The notes under the pieces: generated by a model
Database searches by the model: none
What the model was told of the DNA's origin: nothing
Seen by the model: only the letters and a program-made list of their open reading frames with translations
Assembly: GCA_008632985.1 (NCBI GenBank)
Contig: QPGO01000011.1
Coordinates: 496,001 to 560,000 of the forward strand
Reading direction: 5' to 3'
Origin: Psammoneis japonica
Lineage: Eukaryota
DNA: 64,000 nt
Made by a program: the position numbers and the translations under genes
Shown: positions 1 through 29,100 of the stretch, piece after piece
Numbering within the stretch: the stretch's first letter is position 1
Layout of the letters: the number at the start of each line of letters is the position of its first letter

Positions 1-3000
1 TCAGCACGCATGCACAGGAAAGGGCAAGACCATTCATTCCTGCGGCCAGCTCGAATGGGCAAAACATGATGTCAACGATCGCTCTGTCAAGGTGCCCAAC
101 GGCTTGCAACATGTCGCCACCCCTGATGGCCATGTCACCCCAATTGACATCAAGGGTGGCCTGCCTCATGTTGCCATGTGACCCCACACTGACGCCGAAT
201 GGGACACCCTGCCCCATGTCATCCTTGCCGGTGATGACACATGGGATCCTTCCATCCTCGATCACTCTGTCACTGACGACGACCAGTGGTGCGACGCGAT
301 CTCTGACCTGCAGGACGATCCCACTGCCAACCTGTTTGACGAATGCGGCAACTGCCGTCACCGTGTTGTTGTCAACAAGGCCATCGTGTCCGCCTCCTTG
401 TCTGCCGATCACGCGTCCGCCCTCGATGACCACCTCATTCCGAATGACAACATGTTCTACGAGTGTCATCTGCATGCGATTGACCCCAAGGACGATGACG
501 TTCCGCCCCCGGAGCGCACTGTGCAGCCCAAGGACCCCCCCTGCGAGTCTCTTTGGCCTCACTTTGGTTTCCAACCTGCCGATGCGGTTCGTCGCACTTT
601 CGACTGCACCACGCAGTGCGCCCGCATGCCCGCCGGCACACACCTTAAGAAGGCCTGCAAATCGCCCAACCCTGCCCTCAATGTGCACCGCCGCAACGAG
701 CCTGTCGCCACTGACACCGTTCATGCCGACACCCCGGCCGTTGACTTCATCAGCGACCGTGCTCAAGTTGAGATCAGCAACAAGGTGCTCGGGATCCTGC
801 AAGCCCTCTTTGTCTCCAGCTGGCAAAGTGAGCCTCACCAGCAACACCAAAACTTTGCTGAACGTCGACACCAGACCGTGAAGCGCATGGCGAACACTGT
901 CATGGACCGTTTCGGTTCACCTGCCCACACATGGCTGCTGGCGCTCATGTGTGTGTGCTTCACACTCAACCACACAGCGTCCCCACATCTCCACTGGCGC
1001 ACGCCCCTCGAGACTCTCACTGGCTCCACCCCAGACATCAGCCCATTGCTTTGCTTTCACTGGTGGGAACCCGTGCACTTCCACCTCGATGACTCTGATT
1101 GGCCATCCGAATCCCGTGAGTTGCGTGGATGCTTTGTTGGCATTGCTGAGCACGTCGGCCACCAGATGACCTTCAAGATTCTCTCCGACGAGACTCAGAA
1201 GATCCTCTGCCGGTCCAACATATGATCTGCTGCCACCGATCCTGCCGTTCGAAACCTGCGTCTTGATCCTCCTGATGGGGAGCCACCTGAACCCATCATC
1301 AAATCTCGCCATGATGACAACCCCGTCGATTCACCCGATGGGGAGATCAGGACACCCAAGATGCCAGTTGACGGGCTCCAGTCCCAGGTGGGACTTTTTG
1401 TGACATTTGCCCCATGGAATTCTACGTGCGAGCTCTGTAGTTCGTACTCTGGTCAATGGACACATTTGTCTTCGACATGAAACAAACGGCCAAGTTTGCA
1501 GCACATGTGTCTCCATTCGCACTCGAAGTTTTGGACAATGCGCCTGCCCCACCATTCTTAAGACACTCGAGAATGGCGTGGAAGAAAAAAATGTTAAAAG
1601 TTGTTGAATGGATCGCCTGACAATTGGCACCAAAATGATGCAAAATTTCGCCAAAATCACGTAGAAATGTACGTGCGCGACATACGACGCGATTCAAAAA
1701 ACTGTCGATGTCACAGTTCAGCAGTGCGAGGTCCCACCCAGACCTGGAACGCATCAGTTTTCGATCCGCAAGACATCATCGGACACATCTTCCTCATGCA
1801 GCCACAAGAGGATGGACAACACCACAGAGCTCGCATCGTCAAGGCCGTCGAAGACCACGAATGGAAAGTGAACGGCAACCCCGAGCTCACCAAGTTCGTC
1901 TGCTCTGTCAACAACGACGAATACGAGGAAGTCCTGGCCTGCAATGACATCATGAATCACATTGAGCAAGAAGATGAAGACACTGCTGTTTGGAAATTTT
2001 GATGCATTGTGTCACACGAAGGACCTCTGAAGCCTCATGACCCAACCTGGAAAGGCTCAAGCTGCGACATTGTGCTTGAATGGGAAAGTGGGGAGATCAC
2101 GTCCGAGCCTCTTGCCATCATCGCCAAGGACGACCCTGTCACCTGCGCCATCTGTGCACGAGAGAATGGACTTCTCGACACTGATGGCTGAAAGCGGTTC
2201 CGCACCATCGCGAGGCGCCAGAAGAAGCCACTCCGCATGGCCAACCAAGCCAAGCTTCGCTCCTTCCGCACTGCACCTCGCCACAAGTGCGGATGCGAAG
2301 TTCCCCGGAACTGCAAGCACGCCATGTCACTGGACGAACGCAACAGCAACCACAAATGGGGAGACACAACTAATCTCGAGATGGACCAACTCGAGGAATA
2401 CGAAGTCTTTCATGACTGCGGGCTCTCCGAGTCTTCCACTCCTCCTGCGGGACACAAGAAGATCCGAGTGCACCCAGTGTGCATGACGTGAAACGCGACG
2501 GCCGCCACAAGGCATGACTCGCAGCCAATGGGCACCTCACGGATGCACCCATTGACATTGTCTGCTCCGGAGCAGTCTCCCTCCATGGCCTTCGGCTGAT
2601 GATTTTCCTGGCCGAACTCAACGAGTTGGAGACATGGGCCACCGACATTGGCAATGCCTGCCTTGAAGCCACCACCAAGGAGAAGCTGCACATTGCAGCT
2701 GGACCCGAGTTTGGCAAACTCGAAGGCCACATCCTTGTCATCCACAAGGCCCTGTGTGGGCTGCGCAGCTCCGGCCTCCGCTGGCATGAGCGCTTCGCCG
2801 ACTGCCTGCGAGCTGAAGGTTTCTTCCCCGCCGTGCCGAACCCGACATTTGGATGCGCAGGAACGGTGACCACTGCGAACATGTTGCCGTTTGTGTGGAT
2901 GACCTCGCCATTGCCATGAAGGACCCTCAATCTTTCGTCGACACTCTCACGGCAAAGTGCAAGTTCAAGCTCAAGGGTGCGGGACCGATTGAGTTCCATC

Positions 3001-4011
3001 TGGGCTGCAACTTTTCCCGGGATCCTGACGGCACCTTGTGCCTGTCTCCGCGCAAGCACATCGAGCGCATGGTCGACAGCTGCACATGACTGTTTGGGGA
3101 GAAACCTGCCACCAATGCCCTGTCACCTCTGGAGAAGGGTGACCACCCCGAACTGGACACTTCCGAACTGCTGGGGCCCGATGGCATTCACCAGCTCCAG
3201 TCTCTTGTTGGTTCACTCCAATGGGCAGTGTCCCTTGGTCGAATTGACATCACCACGGCCGTCATGTCACTCTCTGGCTTCCGAGCTGCGCCCCGTCAAG
3301 GCCACTTGGATCATGCCAAACGCGTCTGTGGGTGCCTCTCCAAGATGCGACACGGCGCTCTCCACGTTCGCACGGAAGAGCCCGACTGTTCGGATCTCCC
3401 TGCTCTGGCCTGTGAATGGATGCATTCCGTGTGCGGCAAAGCAGAAGAGATGATCCCGAAGAACGCTCCACCACCCCTTGGCAAGTTTGTCACTGCCACC
3501 CACTGCGTCGATGCAAACTTGCACCATTGCATGCTCACCGGATGCTCTGTCATGGGAATGCTCCACTTCCTCAACAAATTCCCGGCTGATTGGTTCTCTA
3601 AGAACCAAGCCACCGTGGAGACTGTGACCTGTGGGTCTGAATTTGTTGCCGCAAGGACTTGTGTCGAGCAGATTGTTGACCTGTGCATCACCCTGCACCA
3701 CCCAGGCATCCCGATCCGTGACATTGGTCACATGTTCGGTGACAACAAGTCGGTTGCAGACAGCGCCACCATCCCGCACTCCAAGTTACACAAGCGACAC
3801 ACCGCACTGTCGTTCCACCATGTGCATGAGGCAATTGCCTCTGGTTGCCTTGAGCTCCACTTCATCGAAGGCTCCCGCAACCCTGCTGACATTCTCAGCA
3901 AGCATTGGGGTTGCTCCCAAGTCTGGGGCCTTCTCTGCCCCCTCATGTTCTGGAACTTCATTCCATCCGAAGTCGAGTCTGTTTCTGTGACTCCTCAAGC
4001 AAACTGGGGAG
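1..4011 (+). mobile_element. Ty1/Copia (CoDi-like) LTR retrotransposon pol relic: integrase-RT-RNase H; 5' end outside window, inactivated
   Basis: Integrase (VATDTVHADTPA, ISDRAQVE, SEPHQQHQNFAERR), RT (WATDIGNACLEA, KALCGLRSSG, VCVDDLAIA) and RNase H (CVDANL, TCGSEFVAAR, MFGDNKSV, NPADILSKHWG) in Copia order. Stops, frameshifts and Tyr->Cys/His changes throughout. Confidence 0.95.
1370..1755. mobile_element. 386-bp non-autonomous TIR element (MITE) inserted in the Copia
   Basis: 25-bp imperfect TIRs (1370-1394 vs 1731-1755, 18/25 identical) and AGTT duplication (1366-1369, 1756-1759). Removing it restores ATG CCA GTT TTC GAT CCG (MPVFDP). Confidence 0.85.
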
Positions 4012-4603
4012 TGACAGGATTTGAGCAGGATTTGGGTGCGCACGAAATGTCGCGCGCTGTTTTAGTTTGCCACACACAGTTTTGTGTGCTTCAGTTCCGT
4101 GCATTCGCACGCGATGCAGTTTGCTTTCGAGCCACAAGGCTCACAAGAATGATGACAGCAGCCCGATTGTGCCGACTTGCACATCTTTCGGCTCCTGTGA
4201 CGGTCTCTGAGCAGAGACTCATCTGCCATTTAGACAGCAGTGAGGAGTCATTGTTTGAATTCTTGCCATTTGCCTTCAATTTCTGTCACAAATTGTGTGG
4301 CGGCATGCTGGACGACGCCATGGCGACTGCGATCAGGCTGCTGTGGTCCGACGACATTCCAACTTGGGCAAATGCGCTGCAACAACATGGACGGACCCCG
4401 CCCAGACTCTAGCCCCACTCCCAGCGCGAACCATGCAGTGGTTCGCCATGCAAAATCACGGATGCGCGCGACTGTTGCCCCGAACCATCACGTGGTTCGC
4501 TGCACGCCAGAAACGACCCGACACACAATGGCCAAAAAGGTAGAAGGTAAAGAGACATCTACAACAACTTTGCATCAGTCGATGCAGCAAAGTCTATTTG
4601 ACA
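4012..4603 (+). repeat. Putative 3' LTR of the Copia element
   Basis: Starts TGACAG immediately after purine tract GGGGAG (4006-4011) downstream of RNase H. Candidate end ...TTTGACA at 4603, where TpA returns. No 5' LTR in the window to confirm it. Confidence 0.5.
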
Positions 4604-5067
4604 ATGTGTGTGTGCTTTGTTTTAGTGGTTTACTACGTTCTTAAAAGTCTCCGTACTACTGCCGTCTTGTTCATCGTCGAACCACATTTTTCTGGTGAAT
4701 TTTGGCATTTGACCCGCTGGTACAAATTACACGTAGATTTTTACGCACGTCCTCCCGAACCAAATCATGGTTCGACAATTCTACGGGGTTCTTGGTACTT
4801 ATCTACGCAGCGAACCATTGAGTGGTTCGATAATATCTTCTGGTACTGTTCTACGGTGGTTTCTACGGGGTGATAAAATCACCGCCAACGAGCATGACGG
4901 TGATTTGACGGCGACCGTGCTTCATACACGAGTGGTTGCTGACAACATAATGCATTGGTAACGATGGCTTTTTGACTCTATTAAAAGGTTATATATGCGT
5001 AGGTACTACTTTATCGTGTCAGTCGCGAGTTTCACGTTGCGCAAGTTGCGAACCACTGAGTGGTTCG
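4427..5067. repeat. Five copies of palindrome CGAACCA-N5-TGGTTCG
   Basis: Copies at 4427, 4481, 4756, 4811 and 5049, plus a half-site at 4678. Confidence 0.9.
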
Positions 5068-5234
5068 ACGTTTTGCCCGAGTGGGGCTAGTAGATTCCCC
5101 CCGCCCCGCCCGCGGCGCGCGCTGGATGCCGTAGATGGAACCTTGAATGAAAGCTCGTTGCTCGTTGCTCGTTGTGGGTCTGCTATGTCAATTATAATCA
5201 ACAACGATAACAACTCTTACAATATAACGCAACC

Positions 5235-6212: not shown

Positions 6213-6492
6213 TAAACAACACAATTCTTCAAAAGAGCAGTTTGCTCTATGTAACGGCCCCCGAGATTATAGACTTATGGGCAGCGAGGGTATTGGTTCT
6301 CTCGTGTGCTTTCCGAGTGACGCTAGCTAGTCACTCGGTCACCGACCACCCTTCCTCGCTTTATGGGTTGGTGCAAGGAAAGATGCAAAGGAAAGATCTT
6401 GGCGAGGGCAAGCAGTAAAAAACACATTCTAGCAGTTAACATTGGAAAGACATACACTCGTAATGTAGAAAAAAATCCAGAAAGTTCCCGCG

Positions 6493-9117: not shown

Positions 9118-11443
9118 CTTGTTAACATGTGTTATTGGCTTTGGAAATCAAGAGATGTGTCGCATTGGCGAACAAACAGTGGCAACACAGCAAATGGGCG
9201 GGAAATCCGCGAGTTCAACACAAGCGGTGGTGGAAGCGGCTGAAGCTGGCGCACGGTGAAACAATGAAGCACTGGCATCGTAGACAATTAGTATCATTCT
9301 ACGTGCATACGTCACCGTTGTCACACCGCATTCCATCTGCATCTCCGGGTTGTTCGTTCTTTAGAGGTTGAAGCTGACAGGCACTGCATTTTGGTGCGCG
9401 ACAGTGCGCCTGAACGATTCTCCCTGCCGTAGTTACACTTCTTCTTCTCCGCAAGCTACGACTCCATGTAATTTCTCCTGACCTGTTGTGCTCCAACACA
9501 ACTGTCCATGCGGTCGTGCCCGCCCCGACCCCCATGGGCCATGGGGACCATGCCTTCACCTGCCCTAAAACAATGCACACAAGATCCCTCTTTCAAACCC
9601 CATGTCCCCCCTCGATGCCATCTGCGCCATCATCAAAACACTGCTCCCCCCCAGTGGTCTGCGCCACTCTTGCCAACAAGTTCATCTAGACCCTGCCGGT
9701 CTTCTTGCTGACCACCCCTTGAAATGCCCCACCGACATTGGTGATCAACTTGCCCCGGCTCCACACGACCACCGGAAGCCTACCCACCCACCAATTTTTG
9801 GCCATCGATGTCACTGTGCCACCAGCCCACCCGCCTCCTGCACCTGGTTTGCCGCCCCTGAAAACCTGTTAAAGAATGCTCACCTTAGCAGCACACAGGA
9901 CAAGCTCCTTGGTTCAACTGCATTGTCCACCTGCCACTCCGACATCATCCCCTCGATGCTGTCGACCAAGCAGGACTTTTCCTCCTCCCGCCCTCACCTT
10001 CGATCACCTGGGTGGTGTCTGGCACCACTTTCATGTCTTCTTCTTTGGCATCTTCACCACAACATCCTCTTCTGTCCCTCCTCTCTCTCCCAAACCACAC
10101 TGGACTGATCCATCTTCTCTCTCCAGCAACTCCCCAAGCTTCCTTCTCCACCTTCAAAAACTCACTCCCAGCCCCCTCTGACTTCCTCACACCCACTCCA
10201 ACAATGCCTGGAAACAAGTGTTGCCAGACTGCTTTGGCGCCTCCCATCATGCCACAAGAACCCCCCAGCTTTGGGCCTCACACATCCTCAGCCTTGACTT
10301 TGGTGTCACTCTCTCCACCCACCTCTCTGCACGCTGCCAAGCCCTCCTTCTCTGACACCCAATTGTCAACTCCCCCTCCCGACCATCTGTCCGCACCCTC
10401 TTTTCCTTCCACCACACACTCCTGCCAACCCACCCATTCCATCACCACAGACCCCTGACACATGCACAATTGAGGGTTTTGCTTCCATCAATGTCAGCTC
10501 ACATTGTGTTGACTGCCCACAGATGACAGCAGGTTGAAAATTCTGCATGAGAAAACAAATCTGCATCAACAAGGGAGCAAAGTCAAGCTGAGTTAATGGG
10601 GTGACACTGCTGAAGTGTCAACCAGTCATCTTTTTGCACACTGTGCCCACGTCAAAGGCTGCAACACAGTGCCCCCCACTGTCCTTTGTGCACTTTTTAG
10701 TGTGCATTGTCAAAATTGTCAACAAGTCGAATTTGAAAAATGCCAGCAACAGCACTCAACAAAATGCACTTGTTTTGTGTGCTGGGCTTTCATCTGACAT
10801 CTCATCAGCTTTTTTGCACAAGCTTCAATCAAATGCATGCAATGTTTGGTTCAATTGGGGCTGACATCTTTTTTTTGCGGTGCATGGTTTGGTTTCCTTT
10901 TAATGGTGGTCATCAGTTTGAAGTTGGTTTTAACTTTGTCCTCCATGCTCATGTGCATGCATCCCTTGCACATGTGCAGCTTGCCTCATGCATGCACACA
11001 GCCCATGCTCATTTTAAATTTTTCTTCATGCTTCCCAGATTTGCACAGCCCATTGGTTTGCGGTGTTTTCAGCTTTTTTTTCACGTGTGCAATTTTCTGC
11101 ACACTTCACAACAGCGCACCTTCTCCTCAAATGTCAGAAAGCAACAGCGTGCTGCCATGATTCATGTGGATTCCACGTGTGGTCACAAATCTGCAAATTG
11201 ACAACCTGCCATGATGGTGAAAGACTTTGCCCCATTGGCCAATGACAGCAGCTCAGTGCAGGGTGAGACCTGCTGTCCTTCTGGTGGTTGGTCAAGATGG
11301 GTTTTGATTGGGGTGTTGCTTGAGTTTTGTCATCCAGAACACCAAGCCAGCAGCACGCCATTGTGTGTGTGCACATCACAAACTTTTCTGCAGCAATGGC
11401 ACAATGGCACATGTCAGAGTTTTGCTTCCAGAATCATTGCAAG

Positions 11444-11750
11444 TCACCACAAATGACACTCTTCAAACAAGGCATGTGCAAAAAGAGGTTCATTGGTTTT
11501 TGATGCATTTGCCAGCAAGAGTGCACCTGTCTTCTCCAATTTTCATGTCCAGATCCAGAAAGACTGCAGGCGGTGCTTGTTCCCACAGCTCTCAGAATCA
11601 CATGCATGAAGCGGGGCTCACCACAAATGACACTCTTCAAACAAGGCATGTGCAAAAAGAGGTTTGTTGGTTTTTGATGTGTTCACTGATGTTGCACCCG
11701 TCTTCTTCCAATTTTTGTGCCCAGATGCAGAAAGAGGACTGCAGAGGTGG
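11444..11750 (+). repeat. Two-copy direct repeat, period ~174 bp
   Basis: Identical 47-mer tcaccacaaatgacactcttcaaacaaggcatgtgcaaaaagaggtt at 11444 and 11618, followed by diverged but alignable sequence. Confidence 0.9.
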
Positions 11751-12074
11751 AGAGTGGGGAGGCAACCCATTGGAGGTTGCCTGAGTTGCAAAGCTCATTT
11801 TTAAAGGCCTCCCAAATCTCTCCACTGTTTCTGGTCCATGCTCCAAACACATCATTGATGGACCATCTGCAGCACAGGAGGTGTGGGGTGAACTCAGTCA
11901 TTGCCACATGACTTGTCATTCATGCAGTGCCTTGCCCAGTGTTGCACACATGCAGGTGGTGCTTGTTCCCACAGTTGTTCTGGCAAGTGCATTCTGTGGG
12001 CAGGGGTGGAACGGGGCACTTGACATTGCACACCAGTGTCCACGTTGCTCCAGAACAAGTGGCGCCAGATGCAC

Positions 12075-12507
12075 GGCAAGTCTGTGTTGCTGCTCCCATT
12101 GGTCATGTTGCTTCATCTGTGTCACACTCTCACAATGTGGTCTGCACTTTTTGGCAATGAACAAGGTGGATCAGAGCAACAGCACTTCTGTCACAAACTT
12201 GCCTGCTCCAGAATTAGCAGTGCTGGATGCACTGGTGAGTTCATGTTGCCATTCCTGTGGTTCATGTTGGTTCATCCATGTCACACTCTCACAACGTGTT
12301 TCACACTTTTTGGCAACAAACAAGGTGGAGTGGCAGTGCTTCCTCAATTTATGGAACAGCAGCTCCTGCTGCTGACTTGCCTGCTCCACAATCAATGGTG
12401 CCAGGCACACCGGTGAGTCTGTGTTGCCGTTCCTGTTGGTCATGTTGGTTCATCCACATTGTGCTCTCACAATGTGTTCTGCACTTTTGGCAACAAATGA
12501 GGTGGCT
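12075..12507 (+). repeat. Three-copy imperfect direct repeat (~160-177 bp period)
   Basis: Core tcatgttg.ttcatc....ctctcacaa.gtg..c..acttttggcaa..aa..aggtgg at ~12075, ~12234 and ~12411. Confidence 0.85.
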
Positions 12508-14993
12508 GCTGGCAGTGGCATTTCAAGAAAGAAAACTGCAGCTGCTGCTGCAAACTCAATTGGTGTTCTTTCCATCAGCATCATTTGAATTAAACACAAA
12601 TGACAAAATGAAATGTTTGCAACGCAAATGATTTTAATTTGAAGGTTTTGCAGGACAGAGGGTGGGAACTCTCACAGGGAAAATGGGTGGCTGTTTCACA
12701 GTGAAAATGGGGGTCAGACCCCATGGCATGAAAATGTTCATCTGTCACAGTTGAAATGCCATCGCCACATGCACAACTGGCAAGGTGTCACAGCACAGAT
12801 TTTTCACCCACAAAAGGGGAGAAAATCACTGTGAGAAAGGTGGTCTCAATCACTGCAACATGTGCTCTGATGCGCTTGCCTGGTGTGCTGTCTTGTTTTG
12901 TTTTCCTGATCTTCTGACACAGGAGGCAGTGTCCTTGCTTGACTGCTGAGTCTGTGGCTTGAGTTTTTTGGTGGAGTGGTTGTGTGCAACTCCCAACAAT
13001 GTGAGCAGATTGTCAATCAGAAACCTGGGCTGCATGCCTGAACATTTTTTGTCAATTTGAAAATGTGTGTGTGTGGGTGGGTGGGTGGGGCTGCAGCTGA
13101 GCCTGCTTTGCCATCTTTTGTCAGAGAGCACTCATGTGTGCATCCATGCCCTTGTGCTCAAAAGAGTGCACACCTTGTTTTCATGTGGGACATCTTGGCC
13201 TCCTCCTCTGTGGCACTCATCAACAAGGAAAACAGCAGCATGTGCCCAAAGAGCCTCCCAAACAAATCCAGCCAGGTGAGCTTTCAACATCTTGCCTCAC
13301 ATTGGAGTCTGAAACCACAGCTTCAATGACCAGTCAAGAAAAAATGGCCCGCGCTGTTGAACAATGTCTGAATCAACCAAAACAACCTTGATCACCCAAC
13401 AAGCAGGGCATTTGCTTTTTGAGAGTCAGCCTGACACGAGACAGTGAGAGGAGGACAGAAAACAAAGTGCTCTGTTTTCCAACCAATGTCCACTGTTCTG
13501 GTTTGGTTGAGTGTGCAGCAGGTGGCTCAACCATCACCCTTGTGTTCTCCCAGACCAGCCTTGCTGTGGTGCTGCAGCCCTTCTGTGAGACCCACATTGT
13601 CACGTTCTTTCCCAGTTGAGAGCTTCAAGGAAGCACGCTGTTGCCTTCAAAATCAGGGGAAAATGTTCATGCATTGTTTGCATCTGCCAGGCAACCACCC
13701 AGTGCAATGTTGTTGTGTGACAAATGAGCTTGCTGAGACAGCTCTGCCTGCTTGCCATGGGAGCATTTTCAGCTCAGACTCTCCAGCTCAGAAATCCAGT
13801 CTTTGGGCTCTCTGTTTTGTTCCCTTGCTCATCTGCTTTGAGTTTGAGAGCTCTCCCATGTCAATCTCTTCATCAGACAGCTTTTTCTTCATGTGCTCTG
13901 CCACTTTCTTGTTCATGTGCTGGCCCACCTCCAACTGTTTCTCCTCCAACTCTTCATTTCACCATGAGCTCAAGCTGTCATGACCACATCACACTTGTTG
14001 ATGCTGGCGTGCTTGCAGTGGGAGCATGGAGTTGCATCTGGAGTGACTGCCAACTTCTTTGCACTTGAACCTGCCATCATTCTCAGTGCATTTTGTCATT
14101 TTGTCAAAAGGGCCACCAGAAGTGTCGTGGCTGGAATCACTGCCAGCAGGAGCACTTGTTTTCATGCTTTCCTCTTTGTGCATCTCTCTCTGCAGACAAA
14201 AGCAGCCCAGGAGCGCACCATTCTGGTGAGTCTGTGTGGTGCAATGTGCTGGAAGACACTTTCTGTGTCACTCATCTTGGTGCCTTGCATCATGCGTTGG
14301 CTCTCCCATCTCTTTGCAAAACTCAACTTCGCAGTTTGGAGGGGCAACTCCGGCCCACGCTTTCTTTTCCCAGCCCTGGAGTGTGACATGGCTGTTGCAT
14401 GGCTTCAGATGCCAACACTTGCTCAACCTGTCAAAATGCCATTTGGTGCAGCAGTCACCTGGCTGCATGGGTTGCTCAACATTTCTCATGATGCTTGGGT
14501 TTGAAGAGGATTTGCGGCTCTCTTGCGACAAAATTCTTGGTTGGGCACAGCACCACGCGAGATGAGCATCCCACTCTGCAACAAAAATGGTGCTGTGTGC
14601 TCCACAGGTGCAAGTTTTCCTTCCTTTTGCTTCTTTGGGTCTCATGTGCTGTGGACCAAGAAGACAATGCCTTTTGCCGTCAGGGTGACTGGGAGCCCAT
14701 GACACTGTGCCATCAACGAACCCCAAACATCTGCTGGGTCTGTTGCTGTGTCCGCCTTGTGTGTTTCTGCCCAACCCCCCTGCACTGACAGAAAGAATTG
14801 TCATTGTCAACCCCGCAAGCAGTGGGCTTTCTTGGTTCATCCATTTCAGCACATGAAACTGCTCCAACAGAGACTTTGAGAAGTTTTGCAGGCAAGTGCC
14901 CTCTCAACCCCCGCCCACCCCACTTTCGAGAAATTCCGTCTGCTCTCTTCCGTGCATGCGGTTCACGCACAACGCACAACGCCGCAGAGGCCC

Positions 14994-15028
14994 TTGACCG
15001 TTGACCGTTGACCGTTGACCCCTGACCG
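14994..15028 (+). repeat. Heptamer tandem (TTGACCG)3-TTGACCC-CTGACCG
   Basis: Read directly; lies at the right border of the TE domain. Confidence 0.9.
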
Positions 15029-15116
15029 ACAAAATCCAAAACGACAAAGGTGTTCAGCTACTATGATACATAGAGAGTAGCTGTTCCCATTGCAAGTTTT
15101 GTTGATTGCACCTACA

Positions 15117-18803: not shown

Positions 18804-20489
18804 CCTCGAGGAAAGCAACGAAACAAATTTTGTGCCATTACAGGCCATGATGAAAAAATGCGTCAATCATCAATGCGCAAGAGTTCGCATTTTGATTTCA
18901 ACTATCACATTTTTGAACATGATTAGAGCCCCGCTCTACCGATCGATGATACACTTGCCATGTACTGTACCGTACCAAGGGGCCAAAAAGTAGTGCCCCC
19001 CCCCAAAATTTGAGTCTTGTACAGTATCATAGCATGGAATTACCGTATGTGACGTTGCCTGCGCGCGTGTATGTGTGAAACAGAAGGATTTGAACAAATG
19101 CGGATATATTGTCACGAATGTGGATACTTGGCTCTATTGGTCGCTGATGGCCGCCCAGCCAGCAGGAGAGTTGGTCAGGGTACGTAGTCTACTGTACTGA
19201 AACCAAGAGATAATTTACTGTAAACCACAGGTAAACCACGCTGGCCGTCATTTACACATTATTTGTACAGCATGTACATGAAGCATGCATGCATTGTGTT
19301 GCATTAGAATCCACACGCCAGCATGCCCCCATCCAAAATTTGAATGTTTCGTATATATTCTTTTACTGTTCATGGAGTGTATATACCCATAATCAAAATT
19401 CCAAATTTTCAGAAGTCGAAACCGTTGAGAACATCCGAAGGAGCACCGCGACCAGAGTTGTCCGTTTCCGTCCCCATTGTAAAACTTGTGCCGAGACGTC
19501 TCACTCTGCTCTTCACATGTTCCTGTCAGCAAATTGTGCAAGGCCACTCACATGAGCATTGTTGTTTCTGTTATTTTGCTGCATGCTTGCGACTGTTCAT
19601 TGAACGTGTCGTTTCCATTTTCTCACTTTGCATGCTGTTGATGTCATCTCCTCATTCAACCTCCAGCAAAGTGCCCTGCAGGAAAAATGCTGTGCTCTAT
19701 GATCAATTGTGTTCCATGATTGCAAGGTGTCTCCTTTTCATTCCCATTTCCATGCAACATCGATGACGACAGTGGCTGGTGGGGCAGCACTGGCAAGAGG
19801 AGTTCGTGCGCAGCTCATTTGGATGACAGGCCCATTCAGCGCTCACGCATGCAGCATGTGGAGTGCTTTGCACTGTGTTCTCATAGCCAGCTCTCTTTTT
19901 TGTTGGTGGCAGCTCTTTTGTTGGTGGCGGCGGTGGCTCTTTTGTTGGCGGTGGTTTGTGTCATCCGGGGGATCAGAAGCGCAACACATCCAGGTGCTGC
20001 ACCTTTCCATGGTGGCCCATTCGCAATGCCCTGGTCCAACAGCCAGTCATGCAATGCAATGCACAGCATGGTGGCTTTTGTTTGTCTGGTGCTGATTGTT
20101 TTTTGGTGTGTCTGTGGGTCCCACTGTGCCAGTGTTTGGTGCTGGGTTGGCCTCCAAAGGTGCTGGCTGCAATTGCGTTGGAGGCACTCTTTTGTGGTGA
20201 TGATGATCCCAGTGGGTCCCAAGTTTGTGCATCTCCAGTGCTGACTCAGATGGTGTTGCTGGTTCTGGCAGATTGAGCAAGAGTTCGAACAAGTTTGCCA
20301 GTGCCTCAATTGATGGACAAGATGATCTTTTGTCTTTTGCAGATGTTCGTGAACAGGGTGGTGGAGTTGCTGTTGGCAACGGTCCTGGTTCAAGCATTGC
20401 ATGCACTGACCCTCCACCTTTTCCAGTGCTGGGTGTGTCTTCACTGTCTGAATGCAAGGTTTTTGTCAGTGCTGAAGCAGGGTTCTCAC

Positions 20490-21700
20490 TGTCACTTGTT
20501 CAAAAGGAATCCATTTTCAACCTTGGCTTTGCATTTGAAGAGCCTGATTCTGGTCATTGGGATCTTTCCAAGTCTGACAAGAAAGCTCTCATTGTGAAGG
20601 GCAAGCTGTTCATTCCACATTGGGGAGATCACATGAAGCAGTGGCCTTGTTGTGCTGTCATTTTTGTGCATCCAGGTGAATGGGTCTCCACATTGCTGAA
20701 GGTCTCGGTGCATCTCTGGCGTCATGCACAACAGAGCCTCTGGCCAGCCAGTCTCATCGTCCCTTTTCAGACAGAAATCAAACCCCAGGTTGCCCTCTTT
20801 CATCAACTCAAGGAATCAAATTGAACTCTTTTTTTTCAGCAATTCTTTGCAAGTTCCCGGGCAAACCCAATGGCGATGTGTTGCTTGCTCTCGTCTGTGT
20901 TGATGAGTCAAGCTTGGACACAATGCTTGAAGTTTTTGATGAAATTTGCATCCATGTCAGTGTGCGCCGGCATGTGCATCTGAAGCAACAAAGGGCGGAG
21001 ATCCTTCGGCTTGACAGATGGGTTTTTCTCTGTCATGGTGATTGCGGACTCAAGACAAGCAAGATTTGGCTGAAGGCTGCCACTTGTTTCTTTTGATTTC
21101 TTGTGGTTCAACACAGTGTTGAGATCATGGCTGTGATCAAGACAAGTTCCAGTGATTTCAATGATGTGAAAAATGTCATGTTTTGGTTTCCCATGAGGAG
21201 ACGGATCCACACACTTGTTCACAAGGGAGCAGCAAATCAAGAATGGGCACTTTGTCTGCTCTTTCATGGTTGGATTGCAGGGGAGATTTTCTTCAACTTG
21301 GGACAGCACATGTTCCTCTTGTGCTGTTTGCACACTTCAAGAAGTGACAGACTGCCCTTCTTTCCATCGTGGATGCAAGTCATGGCCCACATGTCAAGGA
21401 AATGGACAACAGCCTGGCACAGCTGTTTGCAGCTGACAAAATGATGCCCTTTGGGAAACATCTTTTTTGGTGCTTTACCTTGAATGCATCCAAGCAGCAT
21501 TGGTTTTTGGAGCCGTTGGAATCTCTTCCTTGGTTTGGCCCAAGCTGTCAATCTCTTGACAAAGAGCATGACATCAGTGAGCCAGCCTTTTGCAAGAAGT
21601 TCCTTGCTTTGCTCCTTGAGAGGACGCTCCACAGAGTGAGAGCCATGTGCTCCCATGAACAATGGCATCAACACGGAGAACAATGCATCCCAATGGCATG
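20490..21700 (-). pseudogene. Mutator-like (MULE) transposase relic
   Basis: GFDFCLKRDDETGWPEALLCMTPEMHRDLQQCGD followed, after a frameshift, by LDAQK*QHNK. This resembles the MT..M...YGD.LFLD...YN region of MULE transposases, with Tyr replaced by Cys/His. Confidence 0.6.
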
Positions 21701-22063
21701 GAGGTGGAGCGGATGAGTTGGGTGAGTCAGAGGGAGAGCTGGTGGTGACTTCATGGTGAGCGTGAGCCAACCCATCAGCAGCGGTGCCTTCTTCATCATC
21801 AATGATGAGCCAGCCTGGATGCTTCGATGTGTCATCTGGCTTGTCAGAAGCATCGTCATCATTGGATTTGCATGTGTTGTCACAGGCACTGTCATCTTCA
21901 GGGCTTGTGCTGGCATTGTCATTGCTGTTGCTGCTGTCACAGTTGGGGGGAGAGCAGCCCGCATCATCAATGTCAACCACGCTGATGTTGTCAATGAAAA
22001 CTTCATTGCAAGTGTTGCTGGAGTTGTGGTGTGGAAGTGTGGCAGCACTTTAAATGCAGATTT

Positions 22064-23750
22064 CATGTTTTGTTCAACACTCTGTCTTGTCTTTCACCCA
22101 ATTCTCAGTCATCATGGCAGTGTCAGAGCTGGTGCACTGTGATGTTCACATTCCCAGAATGGGCATCAAGAATGGCGTGATGGCACAATCATTGCAATTG
22201 ATCATGGTGCATTGCACCATGTTGGTCCCATGGTTGCTTGTGCAATTGCTGAGTTCTTTGTGTGCATTCACAGATGTTTTTGAAGACCAAATCAATGCAT
22301 GGTGAGACAGGGGGCAGTTGTGTGTCTTTGCCAGTGGCTGGAAGAGGGCGCAACAGGTTCGTCCTTGGAAAAGGAAGCAGGACCATCCTGATGCCATCAT
22401 GTCATTTGTCCACAACACTGGTGTTCCTCAAATCCTTGTTGTGTCAGATGGCACACTGGAAACAGTGGAAGGCCAGAGCAAAGACATCTGCAAGGAACAC
22501 AGACCCAGAGTGGTGTGGTCTCTGTGCCACAAAGCCCCTGGCAGAACAACCCAGCACAGCCATCCACTCATGAGTCACAGAAAAGGTGTTGACACCCTTG
22601 AGCTCAAGACATGGGCCTGGACTGGACAGTTCACCAGAGGGAGCAGAATGCAAAAATGGCAAATCATTGCCAAGGCCTTGTTGGGGTGCTCTGATGTGGG
22701 CAGTTGAGCTTGGATGGATTGAAATCTTTGTTGCCATCTCACTCATGTCCTCCTGCCAGGTGGCACCACAAGTTGGACACCTGGGTGAGGTGCTCCACAT
22801 CTTTGGGTGCTTGAAGGCTCACCCAAAGTCTTCACCAGAGTGTTTCTTGACAACATCGCTGAGCCATTCTTTGATGAGAGCCAGCTCACTGCAAGCATGG
22901 CTGAGAAGAACACGACCACCCTGGTGCAGCTGAACCATTGAGGCCAAACATGGCAGAGACATGCAGGAATGGCTGGCATGACCACTGCTTGCTTTGTTGA
23001 TGCAGATCACTGTGGATGTCATGTGATGTGCAGGTGCAGTCCTGTTGTTCATCCAGCGAGTGCTCATTTTGCACAGCTCTGAGACAAGGCAGAATGCCAC
23101 AGAGTCATCTGCTGCTTTTGGGCTGGAGTTCATGGCAATGAAAGCTGCCATGGAGCAAATCAGAGCCTCTTGCATTGCAAGCTTCAGATGCCAGGAATTC
23201 CCCCTGGGTGGGGCCACTGACATCTTTTGCATCAAGAACTGAACTGGACCAGAGCCCATGTTGCAGAAAAGAAGCACAATGCAGCTGCACACCACAGGAC
23301 TCATGAAGCACAAGCAATGGGAATTGTGAGCATTGCTCTGGAGGACAGATGCTCAAACCCAGTGGATGTGCCAACCAAGTTGTTTGATGCCTGGACAGAA
23401 GCTCCTCTGGGAAATTGCAAGTCACATCTCATGGTGAGTCCCAAAAGGGGACACACCAAGCAGGTGTGCCACACACCTGGAAGTGGTTTTGTCATTTCAT
23501 CCCCAAAAATTTAGAAATCACCCTGGAATGAGGCAGCACCAGGGGGGGGGGGGGGGGTGGGTGAACAAACAATGCTGATGCACTGTCACAAATGTGGGCA
23601 GTTGTTCACCATTGGCAATTTGCCCACCGTCACTGACACAGTGGCCCCAGCAGCAGTGCAACTGACTCACAGCTCCAGAAGAACCTGTTGATGTTGCTCA
23701 ACACTCTGTCTTGTTGTCTTTCACCTCATTCTTGGCCATCATGGAAGCAT
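22064..23750 (+). mobile_element. Internally deleted Copia relic with probable LTR remnants
   Basis: Integrase (KRKQDHPDAIMSFVHNTGVPQILVVSDG), RT C-terminus (WAVELGWIEI..SLMSSCQVAPQVGHL..VLHIFGCLK) and RNase H (FVDADH, QNATESS..FGLEFMAMK, KKHNAAAHHRTHEAQA). Flanking direct repeat tcaacactctgtcttg..tctttcacc at ~22073 and ~23698. Confidence 0.8.
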
Positions 23751-26700
23751 TTGTTCAGATTCATCCTTCACTTGGAAAAACACTGCTTCCATGGTCGTTT
23801 TCTGCTTCTAAATTGAGTCTCATGATGTGAGAGTTGCTCACAGTGGCAGACCTGGTCCTTCCTGCCTCAGCTCTTAATTTTTGAGCAGCCGGCATTGACC
23901 CTGTGACTGCTGTGACTGGGTGGCAACTTCAGGGGGAGGGGTTGGAAGATGAGGAAAGGAGGAAGAAGCACCACACCAAATCTGCTCAGCTGCTGCCTGC
24001 AGTGACAAGAAGGAGGGTGAGGACATCAACACAGAGACAGAAAAAGCAGTGCACAAGGGCTGCACTGAGACAAAGAGACACTGCCACCTCTGCAAGAGCC
24101 AAGTGTGTGCAAACTGAGTCAGTGTGAAAAGAAAATTTCTTCCAAAGCAAAGGAGCTTAGAGAGTGCATGTGTTGCGAAGGGGCATTTCCCCAAAAAGGG
24201 AAAGGAGAGTGAGTTGCAACATTGTTTGGGGCAAACAGTTGGTGGAAACAGCAGCTTTGAAGTGGAGCACAACTGGACAGGGATGGCCACACTTTCTACC
24301 ACCTTTGAGCCTCTGTGTGGTGTGGCAACTGTGTGCTCCATGTGATGCCCTCCTCTGGTGTCTACAGAGGCTCTTGCAATTTCAAAGTGCAGCACATGAT
24401 TTGTTTGCACCAACCAAAAAGTTGAGAGACTCCAACTCTTCTGCCCCATGGCAAAGCCATTGTGCCATTGCTTTTGATGCTAGAATTTGCACTGGTCTGT
24501 TGCACCTGTTCACGAGCCCTCCATCTTTTGCAGCCAATGAAAGCTGGACAGAAGCTCACCCAACAATTTGTCAAAACATTGCAGAAATCTTGACTTTCCA
24601 CTTTGAGATCAAAAGAGATCCCTCAGACAAACCCAGCAACCAATCTCCCTGACAGCTGCAAATCACTTTTGAAGACAAAAGAGCAACACTTGCCATCATC
24701 ATGCTTCAATTGTGGGGCCTGATGACATTCTTTTTGTTTGCAATTGGCTGCAAACAAGCACATTTTTTGTGCTCAAAAGTGCACACCCAGAAAAGGAACC
24801 AATGCTCACATGGCTGGTGTGGTGCACCTTTCAACATGTGTGCAACTGGCTGAGAAGCAGGAAGATGCACAATGCCAAAACATGAGCAAGTGGAAGTGCC
24901 ATGTGAGACAGCTGATTGGTTGGCCCATGGGGTTGGCCAGAGTGGGAAACTGCGACACTTTGTTTGCAAGGTGCGAGCCATTTCAATTGCCAGCCCATCA
25001 ACCACACATGCAGCCCTGGCATCAGACACAATTTTGCTGCAGCTGCAAAACGGCAATCCCCTGGCTTGTCATGTGAGCTCTGCAAGTCCTTGACAAGGAA
25101 AAGCTTTTGGTGAGCTCTGTTGTGCATGGCAAACAATTGTGCGCCATTTTGCTCTTCTTTTCCATGCTCATTGGCGATGATGCATCAGCAGAAATGGCTC
25201 ATCACCACAGCCTGGTGAGCACTGCTGTTGTCAATCTGCACAAGGGTGTGTGCAGTCCAGCAATGGCAGCAAGGTTTTTGACACTTGCTTGAGAATTGCA
25301 GGCAACAGCTCACACTGGCCAAACTGACACATGGCAACATTGTTCATTTTGTGCATCTGACAAGTGGACAAGAACAACAGCACGCAGCAGTTTTTTTTCA
25401 TGAGCACACATTGTCATGTCTTCACAACAGTGCTGCAAAAAACCAGTGCTGCCACAGACCATGGCTGCTTGGGCAGTGTGTGCAACATTGCAAGAGACTT
25501 TTGCAGACACTGTCACATTGCACTTTGGCAAACAAGCATTCCATCAGCTGCTGTCAGCTCTCTGATTGAGAGACACACAGCATGAGTGATGGCAACACAT
25601 GCCAAGAACAGTCTGAACTTGGTTGGAATGCCTGGCACTGGTGTTCCTCTTCCTCTTCCTGTGACTTTTCATTGGACCCAGCCTCGTTGCCATCCAGCTG
25701 ATCATCTGGCACTTGATGCTCAAGATCATTTGCATCTTGTTGGTGTCATGATCCACTCCTGCATGCCAAAGAAGTCAAAGGAACACATCAATCTTTGGTC
25801 TTCAGCTTGGGACCATTCCTCTTGTTGTGCTTGGCTGTTGCATTGACAGCAGATGCTGCAATCACTGTCAGTGGGACAGGAATGGCAGAGACCCTGCTGC
25901 CCATGAGAACTTGTGTGGTGGCAAAGTGAAAAAAACATGTGTCACAACATTGAGAGGCCTGAGGCAAACAGCATCAACCATGCACTGTGCAGGTGTGTCA
26001 GAAGGATTTGGCTCATCACAGGCTTGGATGTGCTGGCCAAATGAAGGAAGAGACAATGACCACACTTCTTTTGAGATCTTGTGTTTGGCTTGCAGTCATG
26101 TCCAAAGCAATGGGCAGCTGGATCTCAAACTGAAGACCAGCTCAGCTTCACTGTTCAAAACTTTTCAGTTCAGTTTGAGCATCCAACACTGGGTGCAACT
26201 TGGGTGTGGCCAAAGCCTTGTGGATTGGCCAAGAATGGAAAGCTCATGACAGCACAAATGCAAAAATCTAAAGAGTGAATGAAAGCAACTGCAGCGTTCT
26301 CTGAAGGAAACAGCACCACACTTTTGCCAGTTCAAACCACACAGACTTGCCATGCACTCATGCTCAGCCCTTGTTTCTTGCAAAGCAGGTTCCCCCAAGA
26401 CCATTTTCCCAGTTCAATTGATCTTTGGCTGTTCACTGGCTTCCTGAGAACTCTTTTCAAGCAGCTTGTGAAATTCTTTCATGAGTTGACATCCCTTCTG
26501 TGTGAAATTGATGAACTGATGATTCACTCTGGGCTTTGAATCAGGAAAGGAATCCTGCCTTTTGTGCTTGGCAACAAGGCCAATGCAAACACCAGCTTCC
26601 AATTCCAAGAGGCCATGCTTCTTTTACAGATCAAGCTCCCAAAACAAAACCAAAATTCCACATTTAAAATGCTCCTGCACTTCCACCCTGCAACTCCGGC

Positions 26701-26979
26701 AACACGCCAACCCACACCCCCAGCACACTGACAGTGCGGCAGGAGCATGTGGTGATTGGCCAGAATCGGCATCATCCAAGGGTGATGCCACACCAAAATG
26801 ACTTGCAATGGTTCTTGCACCTCTGGCAGCAAACTGCACTGCTTCTCCAATGCTTGATTTGAACATTGGCCTGACCATGGCCAGCCAATTGCAGAGAGAC
26901 AATGAGTTGAATGTGTCAAATGTTCTTCAACTGAATCCAATGGATGTGCCCTGTCTCACCAGATTGCAACATGTGGCTT

Positions 26980-29100
26980 TCACCTCTGCTTTGCTCAGTG
27001 CTGCTGGGAGGACTTCCTTGTTTCCACATCGTGACCATGGACCGCATCATTGTGTTCATCCCACAGCTCCCACCACTGCTCCCAAATGCAATTGCCAATT
27101 GCAGCCACCTTGTCCAGTCTCTCATCTTGTTCAGAGAGGTTCTGATGGTGAGCACCACTTGCCAAAAGATGCAAAGTTTGTGTCATGTTCCACACTTTGG
27201 AGAAGTGTTTGTCAAACAACTGACTCCATCCAATTTGCTCCTGGGACTGGAAAACTGTCACCACACTGTGACGCAGGTCCTCAGAACAAAGCAACTCCTC
27301 CCAGAACCATGCCTCTGCGGCTGAAGGAATCAAATCGCACAAGGACGGGCATGCATGGTTGAATGATGTCACACTTCTTACACAGACCTTGTGGAAATTT
27401 TCGATGCCAAGCTTCACTGTGCAGACAATGGAGAATGTGGTCTCTGTCTTTCATTGGATCTTGACAGTGTGCACAACAATCTGGGTGGGTGGGGTTGTGT
27501 TGGTGGATGACTTTGTTTGTTGGGAGAAGTTCCTGCACCAGCTTGACCACACTGACTTTCTGGCAGATGTTCCAAGACATTGGTTTGGCGCGCATCTCCC
27601 AGTCAATCGATTTGCGGGTTTTGTTGGACCAACCACACTTCTCTTTCATGCATCATGTTGGATGACTGGCTTGCACTTGGCCAAGATTGTGGCACCCTGT
27701 GCAATTAGATTGGCACTGCAATGGGGCATGCAAGGTGCAAAAGAGCGTTGCTGGAGAAAAATGACCCTCGCATTGTCCTGCCAATCTGTTGGCTTTGATG
27801 TTCAACTGAGCTGCCAAAGACAAGGAGTCCATGGGCATTGTGATGTCTTGGTGTCCCTTGACCCAGTGGACTGAGACTTTGGCACCATGCTGCTCATTGC
27901 AAGACATTTTGAAGATTTGTCGCATGGAATGAAAATTTGATGAAGACATCCCAATCTGCGGAAAGAGCATTGGCGATGTCATGTTGCTGATGACAGTCCC
28001 TGGCACCTTGAATTGCCTCATCATCTGTCAGAAAAGGGGAAGCCTGGAAATCAGAGACATTGTGCACAAGTGAGGAACTGTCACAGTGCACAATGTCCGC
28101 ACCTTTGGCGAGCATTTTGCAACAATGTTTCATCAGTTGAAACAGGAAACAGAGGAAAGACAACAATCCACATGCTTCAACTCAGCAAGATGATGAATGA
28201 AAACCAAAAACCAGGTGGCACAATCCACCAATGGAGTTCCGTCAACTGCAAGTGTCCAACCAAACGTGCCCCAAAAATTGAGGACCCAATCCATCACTGC
28301 CCACTGAGGCTCGATGATGAACCAGCAGGTCTGTGACCTTGAACACAGACATGTGCAAAGTCAAAACATCAAACAACAAGGACTCTCATTTGGGGAGAGA
28401 TTGCAACATTGCCCTGAAGTCATTGGGAACTCCCAGAAGGGTGGGTGGCGGGGAAACCCGTGTGCCCAGGGAAGTCATTTGCCAACAACCAGCATGGGTG
28501 GCATGTGCCAATCATGCTGGGGATGCTGCAGGGGAAATTTTGGGGATTGTTGCCAAGGCAGCTGCTGATGCAGAGCATCTGTCAATCACTGGAAATGTCT
28601 GAAAACTGGAACTGTGCAAATGTGCAGGCAGTCTTCCAAAGGCTTGTTGGGCATGCTGCATGAGACATGCACATCTGGGGGTTCGGTGCTGCCCACTGCC
28701 CCAACAGATGGCTCATTTCCAACAAATTGACTTTGCACAAAAGGGAACATGCACTGTGCCATTGTCTCCAGGCCCTGGCAGATGGGTGGGATTGTTTGGT
28801 GGGATTCAAAGTCAAATGGCTGCTGAGAAGAGAGTGTTTGTGCCATTGACTTTAAATTGATTGCCAGATGTGCCATCTGGCAAAGCAACATCCAACAATG
28901 TCAGAACATTCAAACACAATCAACAACAATTCACCCACCAGATCTCCCAATCAGCAAATGCGTGTGACTCAAGTGCCATGTCCATGATGCATTGGTTGTC
29001 ATCCTGCTGCAAAGGCAACAACACACCAGTGTTGTTGAAGTCAACATGCACCTCAATCCTGGCCAAAAAGGAACAGAGAGACATGAATCAATGAGATGTG
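26980..29100 (-). mobile_element. Non-LTR retrotransposon (LINE with RNase H) 3' relic
   Basis: PLQQDDNQCIMD, PSARAWRQW..LGQW, RNase H VHWVKGHQD..LSLAAQLNIKANRLA, SIDW, CAHC..DRDHILHC zinc-knuckle-like motif, QEQIGWSQLF, WELWDEHNDAVHG. Confidence 0.75.

Follow-up and report, generated by a model that had tools for sequence, protein, structure and literature searches.

Hardly anything is known of targeted A:T-to-G:C hypermutation in chromosomal DNA. Its only description that our literature searches brought up, a 2026 preprint by Mettrop et al. (bioRxiv 10.64898/2026.01.13.699255), concerns a single chlorarachniophyte, Bigelowiella natans; it was the sole directly matching report in a full-text search, and no report on diatoms was found. 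According to the available text of this preprint, two integrated viral regions took 231 of the 302 substitutions newly gained by B. natans mutation-accumulation lines; of these, 230 were A-to-G or T-to-C changes, every one at TpA, at ~1000 times the background rate and in only some of the lines. The same text reports 124 genomic clusters of TpA-depleted windows rich in CpA and TpG, an enrichment of reverse-transcriptase and DDE domains among TpA-depleted coding sequences, and the authors' proposal that DNA adenine is deaminated by an ADAT2-like enzyme. Dinucleotide-specific transition hypermutation that inactivates repeats and mobile DNA in the chromosome, on both strands, leaving blocks of skewed dinucleotide composition, is also the hallmark of repeat-induced point mutation (RIP) among ascomycete fungi, which runs in the opposite direction, from CpA to TpA by C-to-T change, with TpA rising and GC falling. 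In animals, hyperediting by ADARs, a metazoan family, and editing by APOBEC3 inactivate retroelements through deaminase-driven clustered transitions, with a one-strand signature and, for ADAR, a loose neighbour preference. This preference is for a 5' U, as cited in the available discussion of the B. natans preprint (bioRxiv 10.64898/2026.01.13.699255). Deamination of 5-methylcytosine in methylated transposons turns CpG into TpG or CpA but is unable to remove TpA; the accessible part of one report documents cytosine methylation in Phaeodactylum tricornutum (PMC6604790). Term look-ups in the available text of the CoDi paper (PMC2806351) and of a 2025 diatom transposon preprint (10.1101/2025.10.24.684338) returned nothing on dinucleotides, RIP or TpA.

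Here we analysed 64,000 nt of the diatom Psammoneis japonica (GenBank assembly GCA_008632985.1, contig QPGO01000011.1, positions 496,001 to 560,000; hereafter the window), which opens with a Copia-type long terminal repeat (LTR) retrotransposon whose conserved tyrosines have almost all been replaced, mostly by cysteine or histidine. The cause is a mutational process with near-absolute 5'-TA-3' specificity that hit both strands. The locus resembles the published part of the B. natans case in that the changes are A-to-G and T-to-C only and at TpA only, that they are confined to foreign or mobile DNA and that TpA is lost while CpA and TpG are gained. It differs in the host, which is a chlorarachniophyte (Rhizaria) there and a diatom (Stramenopila) here, in the target, which is integrated viral DNA in the available preprint text and a Copia-type LTR retrotransposon here, and in degree, since the observed/expected ratio (o/e) of TpA is near-saturated at 0.02-0.09 here versus 0.45 in their region from a nucleocytoplasmic large DNA virus (NCLDV). 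Furthermore, CpG decay co-occurs here, and the mutations there arise de novo in culture whereas here they are known from the sequence signature alone. The available text of the preprint has no mention of diatoms, stramenopiles, CpG (0 occurrences), Copia or tyrosine, and what is new here relative to it is the host lineage, the target class, the saturation and the coupling with CpG loss. Neither the TpA enrichment nor the GC loss of RIP is seen here, where TpA is destroyed and GC has gone up. In contrast to ADAR and APOBEC3, both strands are struck in a near-absolute context, and the CpG to TpG or CpA decay of methylated transposons is present as well, at 10 of 32 conserved arginines. The parts of the element are the following.

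1..4540, plus strand: TpA-depleted block comprising two-thirds of a Copia-type gag-pol, from its 3' side, and ~560 nt downstream; its 5' side is cut by the start of the window.
2..1363, plus strand: pol segment in frame 2, upstream of the reverse transcriptase (RT), corresponding to ~ residues 620-1119 of full-length relatives, with in-frame TGA at 179 and 1223; contains the motif DTVHAD.
1365..1754, no strand assigned: nested 390-nt insertion, made of 385 nt and a 5-nt target-site duplication (CAGTT), absent in sibling copies.
1757..2476, plus strand: pol segment in frame 2, running into RT, with TGA at 2000 and 2189; TAC at 2399 is the sole conserved Tyr codon kept.
2479..2817, plus strand: N-terminal half of RT in frame 1, after a frameshift near 2477, with TGA at 2515; RVT_2 at E 2e-05, profile positions 52-143.
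2820..3980, plus strand: C-terminal half of RT with the RNase H-side region, read in frame 0 beyond another frameshift near 2818, with TGA at 3087; RVT_2 at E 4.6e-06, profile positions 143-228.
2892..2903, plus strand: RT catalytic motif CVDD (TGT GTG GAT GAC) in place of YVDD, with Tyr in 100% of 74 relatives.

A search of a large protein collection with the last open reading frame (ORF) of the element gave 748 proteins at E <= 0.001 from 2283 candidates. RVT_2 was present in all 120 matches listed, and 74 of these, gag-pol proteins of 1800-1950 amino acids with 59-67% identity, served as the full-length reference set over 1174 aligned codons. One relative is labelled Cylindrotheca fusiformis, which together with the diatom host may hint indirectly at a place among the CoDi lineages of diatom Copia elements (Maumus et al. 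2009). When these 74 relatives were compared with the window by tblastn, they aligned as one broken gene, read in frame 2 to ~2476, in frame 1 from 2479 to ~2817 and in frame 0 from 2820 to ~3980, with a gap at 1393-1760 over the nested insertion; the alignment starts at base 2 with residue ~620-658 of the relatives, thus the element is cut by the window start. The frame-0 piece is 63-67% identical to the relatives, and the closest intact one has RVT_2 at 104 bits and is 52-74% identical to the window, 67% over the piece with the RT C-terminus and RNase H side. In the window itself RVT_2 (Pfam) is found as two pieces in two frames, at 2518-2919 (E 2e-05) and 2817-3089 (E 4.6e-06), each under the gathering score because the frameshift splits the domain. 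The segment 2-1363 aligns upstream of the RT of the relatives, on the side where Copia gene order puts the integrase; it has no Pfam family, and Pfam gave no integrase family on it or on the closest intact relative. A search for protein siblings of near length reached 67% identity at best, equal to the long proteins, and found no copies from the same genome in the collection. No repeat of the element's 3' region was detected by blastn self-comparison within the window, beyond which the 5' end of the element lies. The copy is dead, with two frameshifts and six in-frame stops outside the alignment gap, all of them TGA (179, 1223, 2000, 2189, 2515 and 3087). Stop-to-stop ORFs are long in all six frames of 1-4500, because TAA and TAG are nearly absent.

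The tyrosine codons TAY are the only sense codon family starting with TA, and so the scar of such a process at the protein level is Tyr to Cys (TGY) or to His (CAY). A first-pass annotation made from the sequence alone had read this direction from ten motifs of the pol region; all ten are present, and 12 Cys or His residues flagged in them lie at Tyr-majority columns of the relatives. At columns with Tyr in at least 90% of the 74 relatives (n=25), the window has C 17, H 6, Y 1 and L 1; at those with at least 70% (n=37) it has C 21, H 11, F 2, W 1, Y 1 and L 1; and at those with at least 50% (n=46), C 24, H 14, F 3, A 2, W 1, Y 1 and L 1. The 12 flagged codons, with the Tyr fraction of the relatives in brackets, are 722 CAT (0.93), 2659 TGC (1.0), 2689 CAC (0.77), 2755 TGT (1.0), 2874 TGC (0.99), 2880 CAT (1.0), 2892 TGT (1.0), 3057 CAC (0.91), 3504 TGC (0.91), 3630 TGT (0.99), 3699 CAC (0.99) and 3912 TGC (0.95). 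In the N-terminal half of RT, Tyr became Cys at 2563, 2659 and 2755 and His at 2689. The codon at 2892-2894 is the Y of YVDD, at a column that is 100% Tyr, so the change to CVDD, which the annotation had singled out, does strike the RT active site and destroys the catalytic tyrosine, and the inactivation of this element is shown by the data. None of the 74 relatives carries the Cys/His pattern of the window, and the worry that Cys or His might be native to active relatives was not borne out in this set. Tyrosine, cysteine and histidine make up 3.83%, 0.90% and 3.54% of the residues of the relatives, against 0.38%, 4.15% and 6.57% in the pol frames of the window.

The context of the change is strict. 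In the conserved columns, A-to-G at codon position 2 was found at 17 of 25 sites after T versus 1 of 117 after C, A or G (Fisher p = 4.5e-15), as the annotation had proposed when it named TpA as the target, and T-to-C at codon position 1 was found at 6 of 25 sites before A versus 1 of 42 otherwise (Fisher p = 0.009). Where A-to-G fell on codon position 1 (I-to-V, T-to-A, N-to-D and the like), T preceded 7 of the 9 changed codons; unchanged A-initial codons were preceded by T in 2 of 111 cases and by C in 75 of 111. The 60 replacements at 452 columns conserved to at least 90% comprise 31 single TpA-type and 15 CpG-type changes, 5 other transitions, 4 transversions and 5 multi-step changes; the copy, with mostly TpA- and CpG-type replacements, is thus otherwise only lightly diverged. 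The B. natans pattern of A-to-G or T-to-C at TpA is found here, and most of the remaining replacements are of the CpG type. Other residue classes are kept at 85-100% of their conserved columns, with the exceptions of Arg (22/32) and Ile (10/14), and conserved residues other than Tyr and Arg are ~93-95% kept. The ten lost arginines (H 6, stop 2, Q 1, C 1) reflect CpG decay (CGN to CAN or TGN). Part of the extra Cys and His stems from this parallel CpG decay, which the annotation had overlooked, with six Arg-to-His and one Arg-to-Cys changes at strict columns. A flanking-base preference was sought at 38 Tyr sites, where the counts are too small to read.

The loss of TpA extends over 1-4540, wider than the 700..3950 originally marked. 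TpA o/e is 0.09 in 1-4540 (19 TA) and 0.06 in the 4150 nt outside the nested insertion (11 TA), compared with 0.56 in 43,418 ordinary bases of the window; over ~870 homologous nt it is 0.05 in the window versus 0.65 +/- 0.175 in 80 metagenomic relatives, the best 80 of 590 confirmed stretches, a selection that disfavours degraded copies. In the block the o/e of CG, TG and CA is 0.80, 1.71 and 1.37 at a GC content of 0.559, and in the ordinary bases the o/e of TA, CG, TG and CA is 0.56, 0.97, 1.20 and 1.18 at 0.482. Counted per 100 codons in phases 1-2, 2-3 and 3-1, TpA occurs 0.25, 0.17 and 0.25 times in the window versus 4.26, 3.36 and 5.22 times in 37 metagenomic loci, which are the first 40 among the 80 once the affected L015, L021 and L027 are left out. 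TpA is therefore lost equally in all codon phases, which makes mutation the cause and excludes a codon or amino-acid preference. CpG across codon boundaries (phase 3-1, 2-3980) stands at 10.97 versus 4.98 per 100 codons in relatives despite the CpG decay, and this may be the family's own codon usage, rich in GC at third positions (GC3).

These data bear on the possibility that no targeted process was at work and that the pattern is due to ordinary decay, GC-biased gene conversion, the codon usage of the family or an assembly or base-calling artefact at modified bases. In favour of this stand the raised GC content of 0.559 and the abundance of the family, which makes conversion between copies possible. 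However, with A-to-G at 1 of 117 sites outside TpA there is no general drive from AT to GC, the preservation of other conserved residues shows that the copy is not old by ordinary decay, and the phase-independent TpA loss is accompanied by stops and frameshifts. Together with public contigs that repeat the TA-free stretches, an unrelated metagenomic contig in the same state and a spared host gene next to the element, all described below, this makes an untargeted origin highly improbable.

Both products expected from a B. natans-type process, TpG and CpA, are found in the element. The outcomes at Tyr codons, in order along the element, are HHHCCCHHCHCHCCHCCHCCHCCHCCHCCCCCCCCHHC. At Tyr-majority columns Cys:His is 24:14 (binomial p 0.14), and the outcomes form 20 runs versus 18.7 expected, hence they are interleaved and without strand tracts, in line with the strand symmetry that the annotation had expected. 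T-to-C on the sense strand accounts for 14 of the 38 Tyr events, so the sense-only A-to-G of ADAR-type RNA editing is not seen. Moreover, two metagenomic copies, L021 and L015, lean the opposite way, which excludes the universal sense-strand bias expected from RNA editing; the dismissal of one-strand ADAR-type RNA editing and of APOBEC-type C-to-U editing thus stands. The step from interleaving to a genomic double-stranded target, also made in the annotation, is likely in its outcome, but interleaving alone is no proof of it, as deamination of RNA together with minus-strand cDNA gives the same picture.

The same state recurs in a metagenomic copy unrelated to the window. L021 is TA-free across its whole 2766 nt (3 TA, o/e 0.02; CG o/e 0.44) and shows H 9, C 5, F 5 and Y 1 where 20 Tyr columns are conserved. 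A partial effect is seen in L015 (Y 11, H 5, C 1, F 2) and in L027, and five other metagenomic loci that were checked keep their tyrosines (22/22, 27/29, 23/24, 25/27 and 28/29). The five Tyr-to-Phe changes (TA to TT) of L021 exceed the 0-2 of intact relatives.

Sibling copies were sought in a public run (X1) that contains this stretch and is possibly its source sample, by matching 10,479 contigs to 1-16000. Summed word depth was 59,000-215,000 over 1-4272 versus ~55 over neighbouring single-copy genes; this measure is not copy number and serves only to show abundance, and the element family is clearly abundant. Differences within the family are mostly transitions, with A>G at 155 places, T>C at 175, C>T at 143 and G>A at 143, versus 13-32 places per transversion type. 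Among the best-supported 40 of 827 places of difference from siblings, 33 are transitions: 12 have CA or TG in the window versus CG in the sibling, 5 have CA in the window versus TA in the sibling (at 595, 637, 679, 973 and 1454), 4 have CG in the window versus TG or CA in the sibling, 2 are ambiguous and 10 are other. At 637/638 the depth shares are 59% for T and 35% for G, which fit only an ancestral TA turned into CA in some copies and into TG in others. At 2191 all sibling depth is G, i.e. TGG (Trp) where the window has the TGA stop at 2189. Contigs of the run reproduce the TA-free single-copy stretches with 0-9 differences, which argues against an assembly artefact, with the qualification that the sample may be the same. 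Family contigs also join 1364 to 1755 with 5 shared letters, showing siblings without 1365-1754, and the nested insertion is itself only partly depleted of TpA (8 TA, o/e 0.30; CG o/e 1.04). A further run (X2) has almost no depth over 1-4272, yet its intron-skipping contigs cover the neighbouring genes; this missing cover is no basis for a conclusion on expression. The contigs of two more runs, X3 and X4 (same sample, 0.3-0.5 million letters of contigs), are largely fragments of the element family and leave the neighbouring genes uncovered.

The element is the first of three sharp-edged TA-free blocks, recognized in a 1-kb profile and in lists of TA positions, which together make up one third of the window. 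The other blocks and the host gene used as a control are the following.

6496-8990, minus strand: host phosphoglucose isomerase (PGI) gene, used as control; its distance is 1-4 kb to block 1 and less than 1 kb to block 2.
9887..15058, no strand assigned: second TpA- and CpG-poor block with 10 TA (o/e 0.03), CG 0.21, TG 1.79 and CA 1.88; an old repeat without recognisable gene.
19885..30754, no strand assigned: third TpA- and CpG-poor block with 17 TA (o/e 0.02), CG 0.16, TG 1.81 and CA 1.87.
22538-23281, plus strand: distant Copia RNase H-side remnant inside the third block, found by tblastn of pol relatives (E down to 1.7e-09).

Raw TG:CA counts are 409:440, 576:598 and 1273:1223 in blocks 1, 2 and 3, respectively. 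PGI keeps its conserved Tyr at 13 of 13 and its conserved Arg at 21 of 21 columns, judged against 54 homologues of at least 650 amino acids among 120 listed; its named best matches are all from diatoms (Cyclotella, Seminavis, Phaeodactylum at 70%, Thalassiosira and Amphiprora), none identical. With TA o/e at 0.02-0.09 in the blocks versus 0.56 elsewhere and PGI spared, the change is confined to repeat or mobile DNA. The 18 ORFs of block 2 gave no Pfam match and the 51 ORFs of block 3 no meaningful one; a TMD0_ABC match in 19885-30754 (E 0.0043, below the family cut-off), obtained from 69 long ORFs of blocks 2 and 3, was rejected as chance. Part of block 2 is repeated in run X1. At three of four edges, both of block 2 and the left one of block 3, the TA-poor zone exceeds the CpG-poor zone by ~100-300 nt. 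The TpA process is faster or earlier than CpG decay, because in block 1 TpA is ~95% gone at a CG o/e of 0.80 and in the older blocks both are gone.

We propose that this dead member of a high-copy Copia-type LTR retrotransposon family in the diatom nuclear genome was rewritten by a dinucleotide-specific process that would have turned ~95% of its TpA into TpG or CpA, by A:T-to-G:C transitions on either strand at random, alongside a slower decay of CpG to TpG or CpA. On this reading, silenced mobile DNA would be the target of a hypermutation within the chromosome that belongs to one class with that of the integrated viral DNA of B. natans, and we put the probability of this whole explanation at about 0.68. 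Action on integrated chromosomal DNA rather than on replication intermediates is suggested because the DNA viruses of B. natans are hit without reverse transcription, different copies lean to opposite strands, 16 kb of TA-free DNA carry no retroelement genes and the nested insertion is partly depleted; this chromosomal reading draws mainly on the B. natans precedent, with the local hints being weak. A defence function is likewise an inferred one.

Several observations weigh against this explanation. Window TG versus sibling TA occurs 0 times among the best-supported 40 of 827 differences. At the strictest columns Cys:His is 17:6 (two-sided binomial ~0.035), and this copy thus has a mild excess of coding-strand A-to-G. 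Nothing in the window directly dates the changes after integration: searches yielded neither a pair of LTRs nor a sibling copy that could be aligned, and the element's 5' end is beyond the window. As precedent there is one preprint, known here from its available text, on another supergroup-level lineage, with a mechanism that its authors propose. Finally, the accessible part of a mutation-accumulation study of P. tricornutum gives a GC-to-AT bias with CG, CC and TG as mutable contexts and no TpA hotspot (PMC6604790).

The mild sense-strand excess and the lack of proof in the window for change after integration would also suit editing during retrotransposition, in which an adenosine deaminase preferring 5'-U/T acts on the genomic RNA (A-to-G sense) and on the minus-strand cDNA or RNA:DNA hybrid (T-to-C sense), so that the copy integrates dead, as APOBEC3-edited proviruses do. 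In favour of it, the element belongs to a very abundant retrotransposon family and its mutated copy does not function; an ADAT2 that edits DNA is on record as well, according to the accessible part of the source (PMC10354150). We nevertheless consider this route unlikely, in view of the opposite bias of two other copies (H 9:C 5 in L021, H 5:C 1 in L015), the random interleaving of Cys and His in the window, the 16 kb of further TA-free DNA with almost no recognisable retroelement coding sequence and the partial depletion of the nested 390-nt insertion (o/e 0.30 vs 0.56 background). In addition, the integrated DNA-virus sequence of B. natans gains the signature de novo with no involvement of reverse transcription, as stated in the available text of the preprint.

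For targeted hypermutation of the integrated element, the most plausible chemistry would be the deamination of adenine to hypoxanthine in 5'-TA-3' by a TadA/ADAT-like deaminase, although an enzyme of this type is a guess as to the agent. The natural substrate of TadA/ADAT is the U33-A34 step of tRNA, and such a reading of the U-A step predicts the exact context. Thymine chemistry within the same chromosomal targeting, in which a TET/JBP-type enzyme makes 5-hydroxymethyluracil (5hmU) at TpA in silenced repeats and mispairing or mis-repair leads to T-to-C, would give the same sequence outcome, because TpA is its own complement and A-to-G on one strand is not separable from T-to-C on the other. 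5hmU prefers TpA in dinoflagellate DNA; it is, however, generally weakly mutagenic, and we know of no evidence for abundant 5hmU in diatoms, for which no specific search was made, and both points count against this chemistry, as does the exact context predicted for TadA/ADAT. Although enzymes do make 5hmU in dinoflagellates, where it has been linked with the silencing of transposons, in the accessible part of the report (PMC11572971), we regard thymine chemistry as quite improbable here.

A wider proposal, on which we are almost evenly divided with a slight lean to doubt, is that diatoms defend their genome at the level of the chromosome by a process chemically the mirror image of fungal RIP, in which a TpA-directed DNA adenine deaminase (or thymine modifier) rewrites essentially every TpA of silenced nuclear transposons, faster than 5-methylcytosine decay removes CpG, and that this defence is old and widespread across the stramenopiles, alveolates and Rhizaria (SAR). 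If so, much of the repeat DNA of major ocean phytoplankton, a third of the present window, would bear its stamp, and the enzyme behind it would be an A-to-G editor of natural origin that targets double strands. The signature itself, found at saturation in a diatom retrotransposon family and again in an unrelated environmental copy, would extend the process to the most important group of marine primary producers and tie it to transposon control, beyond integrated giant viruses; its efficacy would be apparent from destroyed catalytic residues and ~95% of TpA removed with other sites ~95% intact. It also points to a natural enzyme strictly specific for adenine in 5'-TA-3'. Conserved Tyr turned into Cys or His offers a detector at the protein level, and TpA near zero with or without CpG loss one at the dinucleotide level, both applicable to any genome or metagenome for mapping the process across eukaryotes.

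Internal repeats and neighbouring genes were also noted in the window. An LTR or direct-repeat pair was sought by blastn and by self-comparison of the purine/pyrimidine-recoded window, and nothing but short internal repeats came up; for the two-letter alphabet the E-values are uncalibrated. The segments ~23.9-25.0 kb and 30.0-31.1 kb were considered as an LTR pair and rejected, with 43% identity and only a similar patch of ~110 nt. Block 2 contains internal tandem-like repeats at 11444-11744 and 12003-12562 with 83% and 70-76% identity, which rises to 87-95% after purine/pyrimidine recoding, thus the repeat copies differ mostly by transitions. The palindrome GAACCA-N5-TGGTTC is found in five copies within 4428-5066 (640 nt), between the element and the next gene, and is absent from the rest of the 64 kb, against 0.04 copies expected from shuffling; the TA-poor part holds two of the five and normal DNA the other three. 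Around PGI, three stretches with the look of short introns (7216-7306, 7486-7573 and 8935-9037) are missing from an X2 contig, so that the run, although labelled 'DNA?', behaves like RNA. Two protein-kinase ORFs on the minus strand, at 31265-32098 and 35150-36031, 4 kb apart, share 67% DNA identity over ~550 nt, which looks like a local gene duplication in normal TA-bearing DNA.

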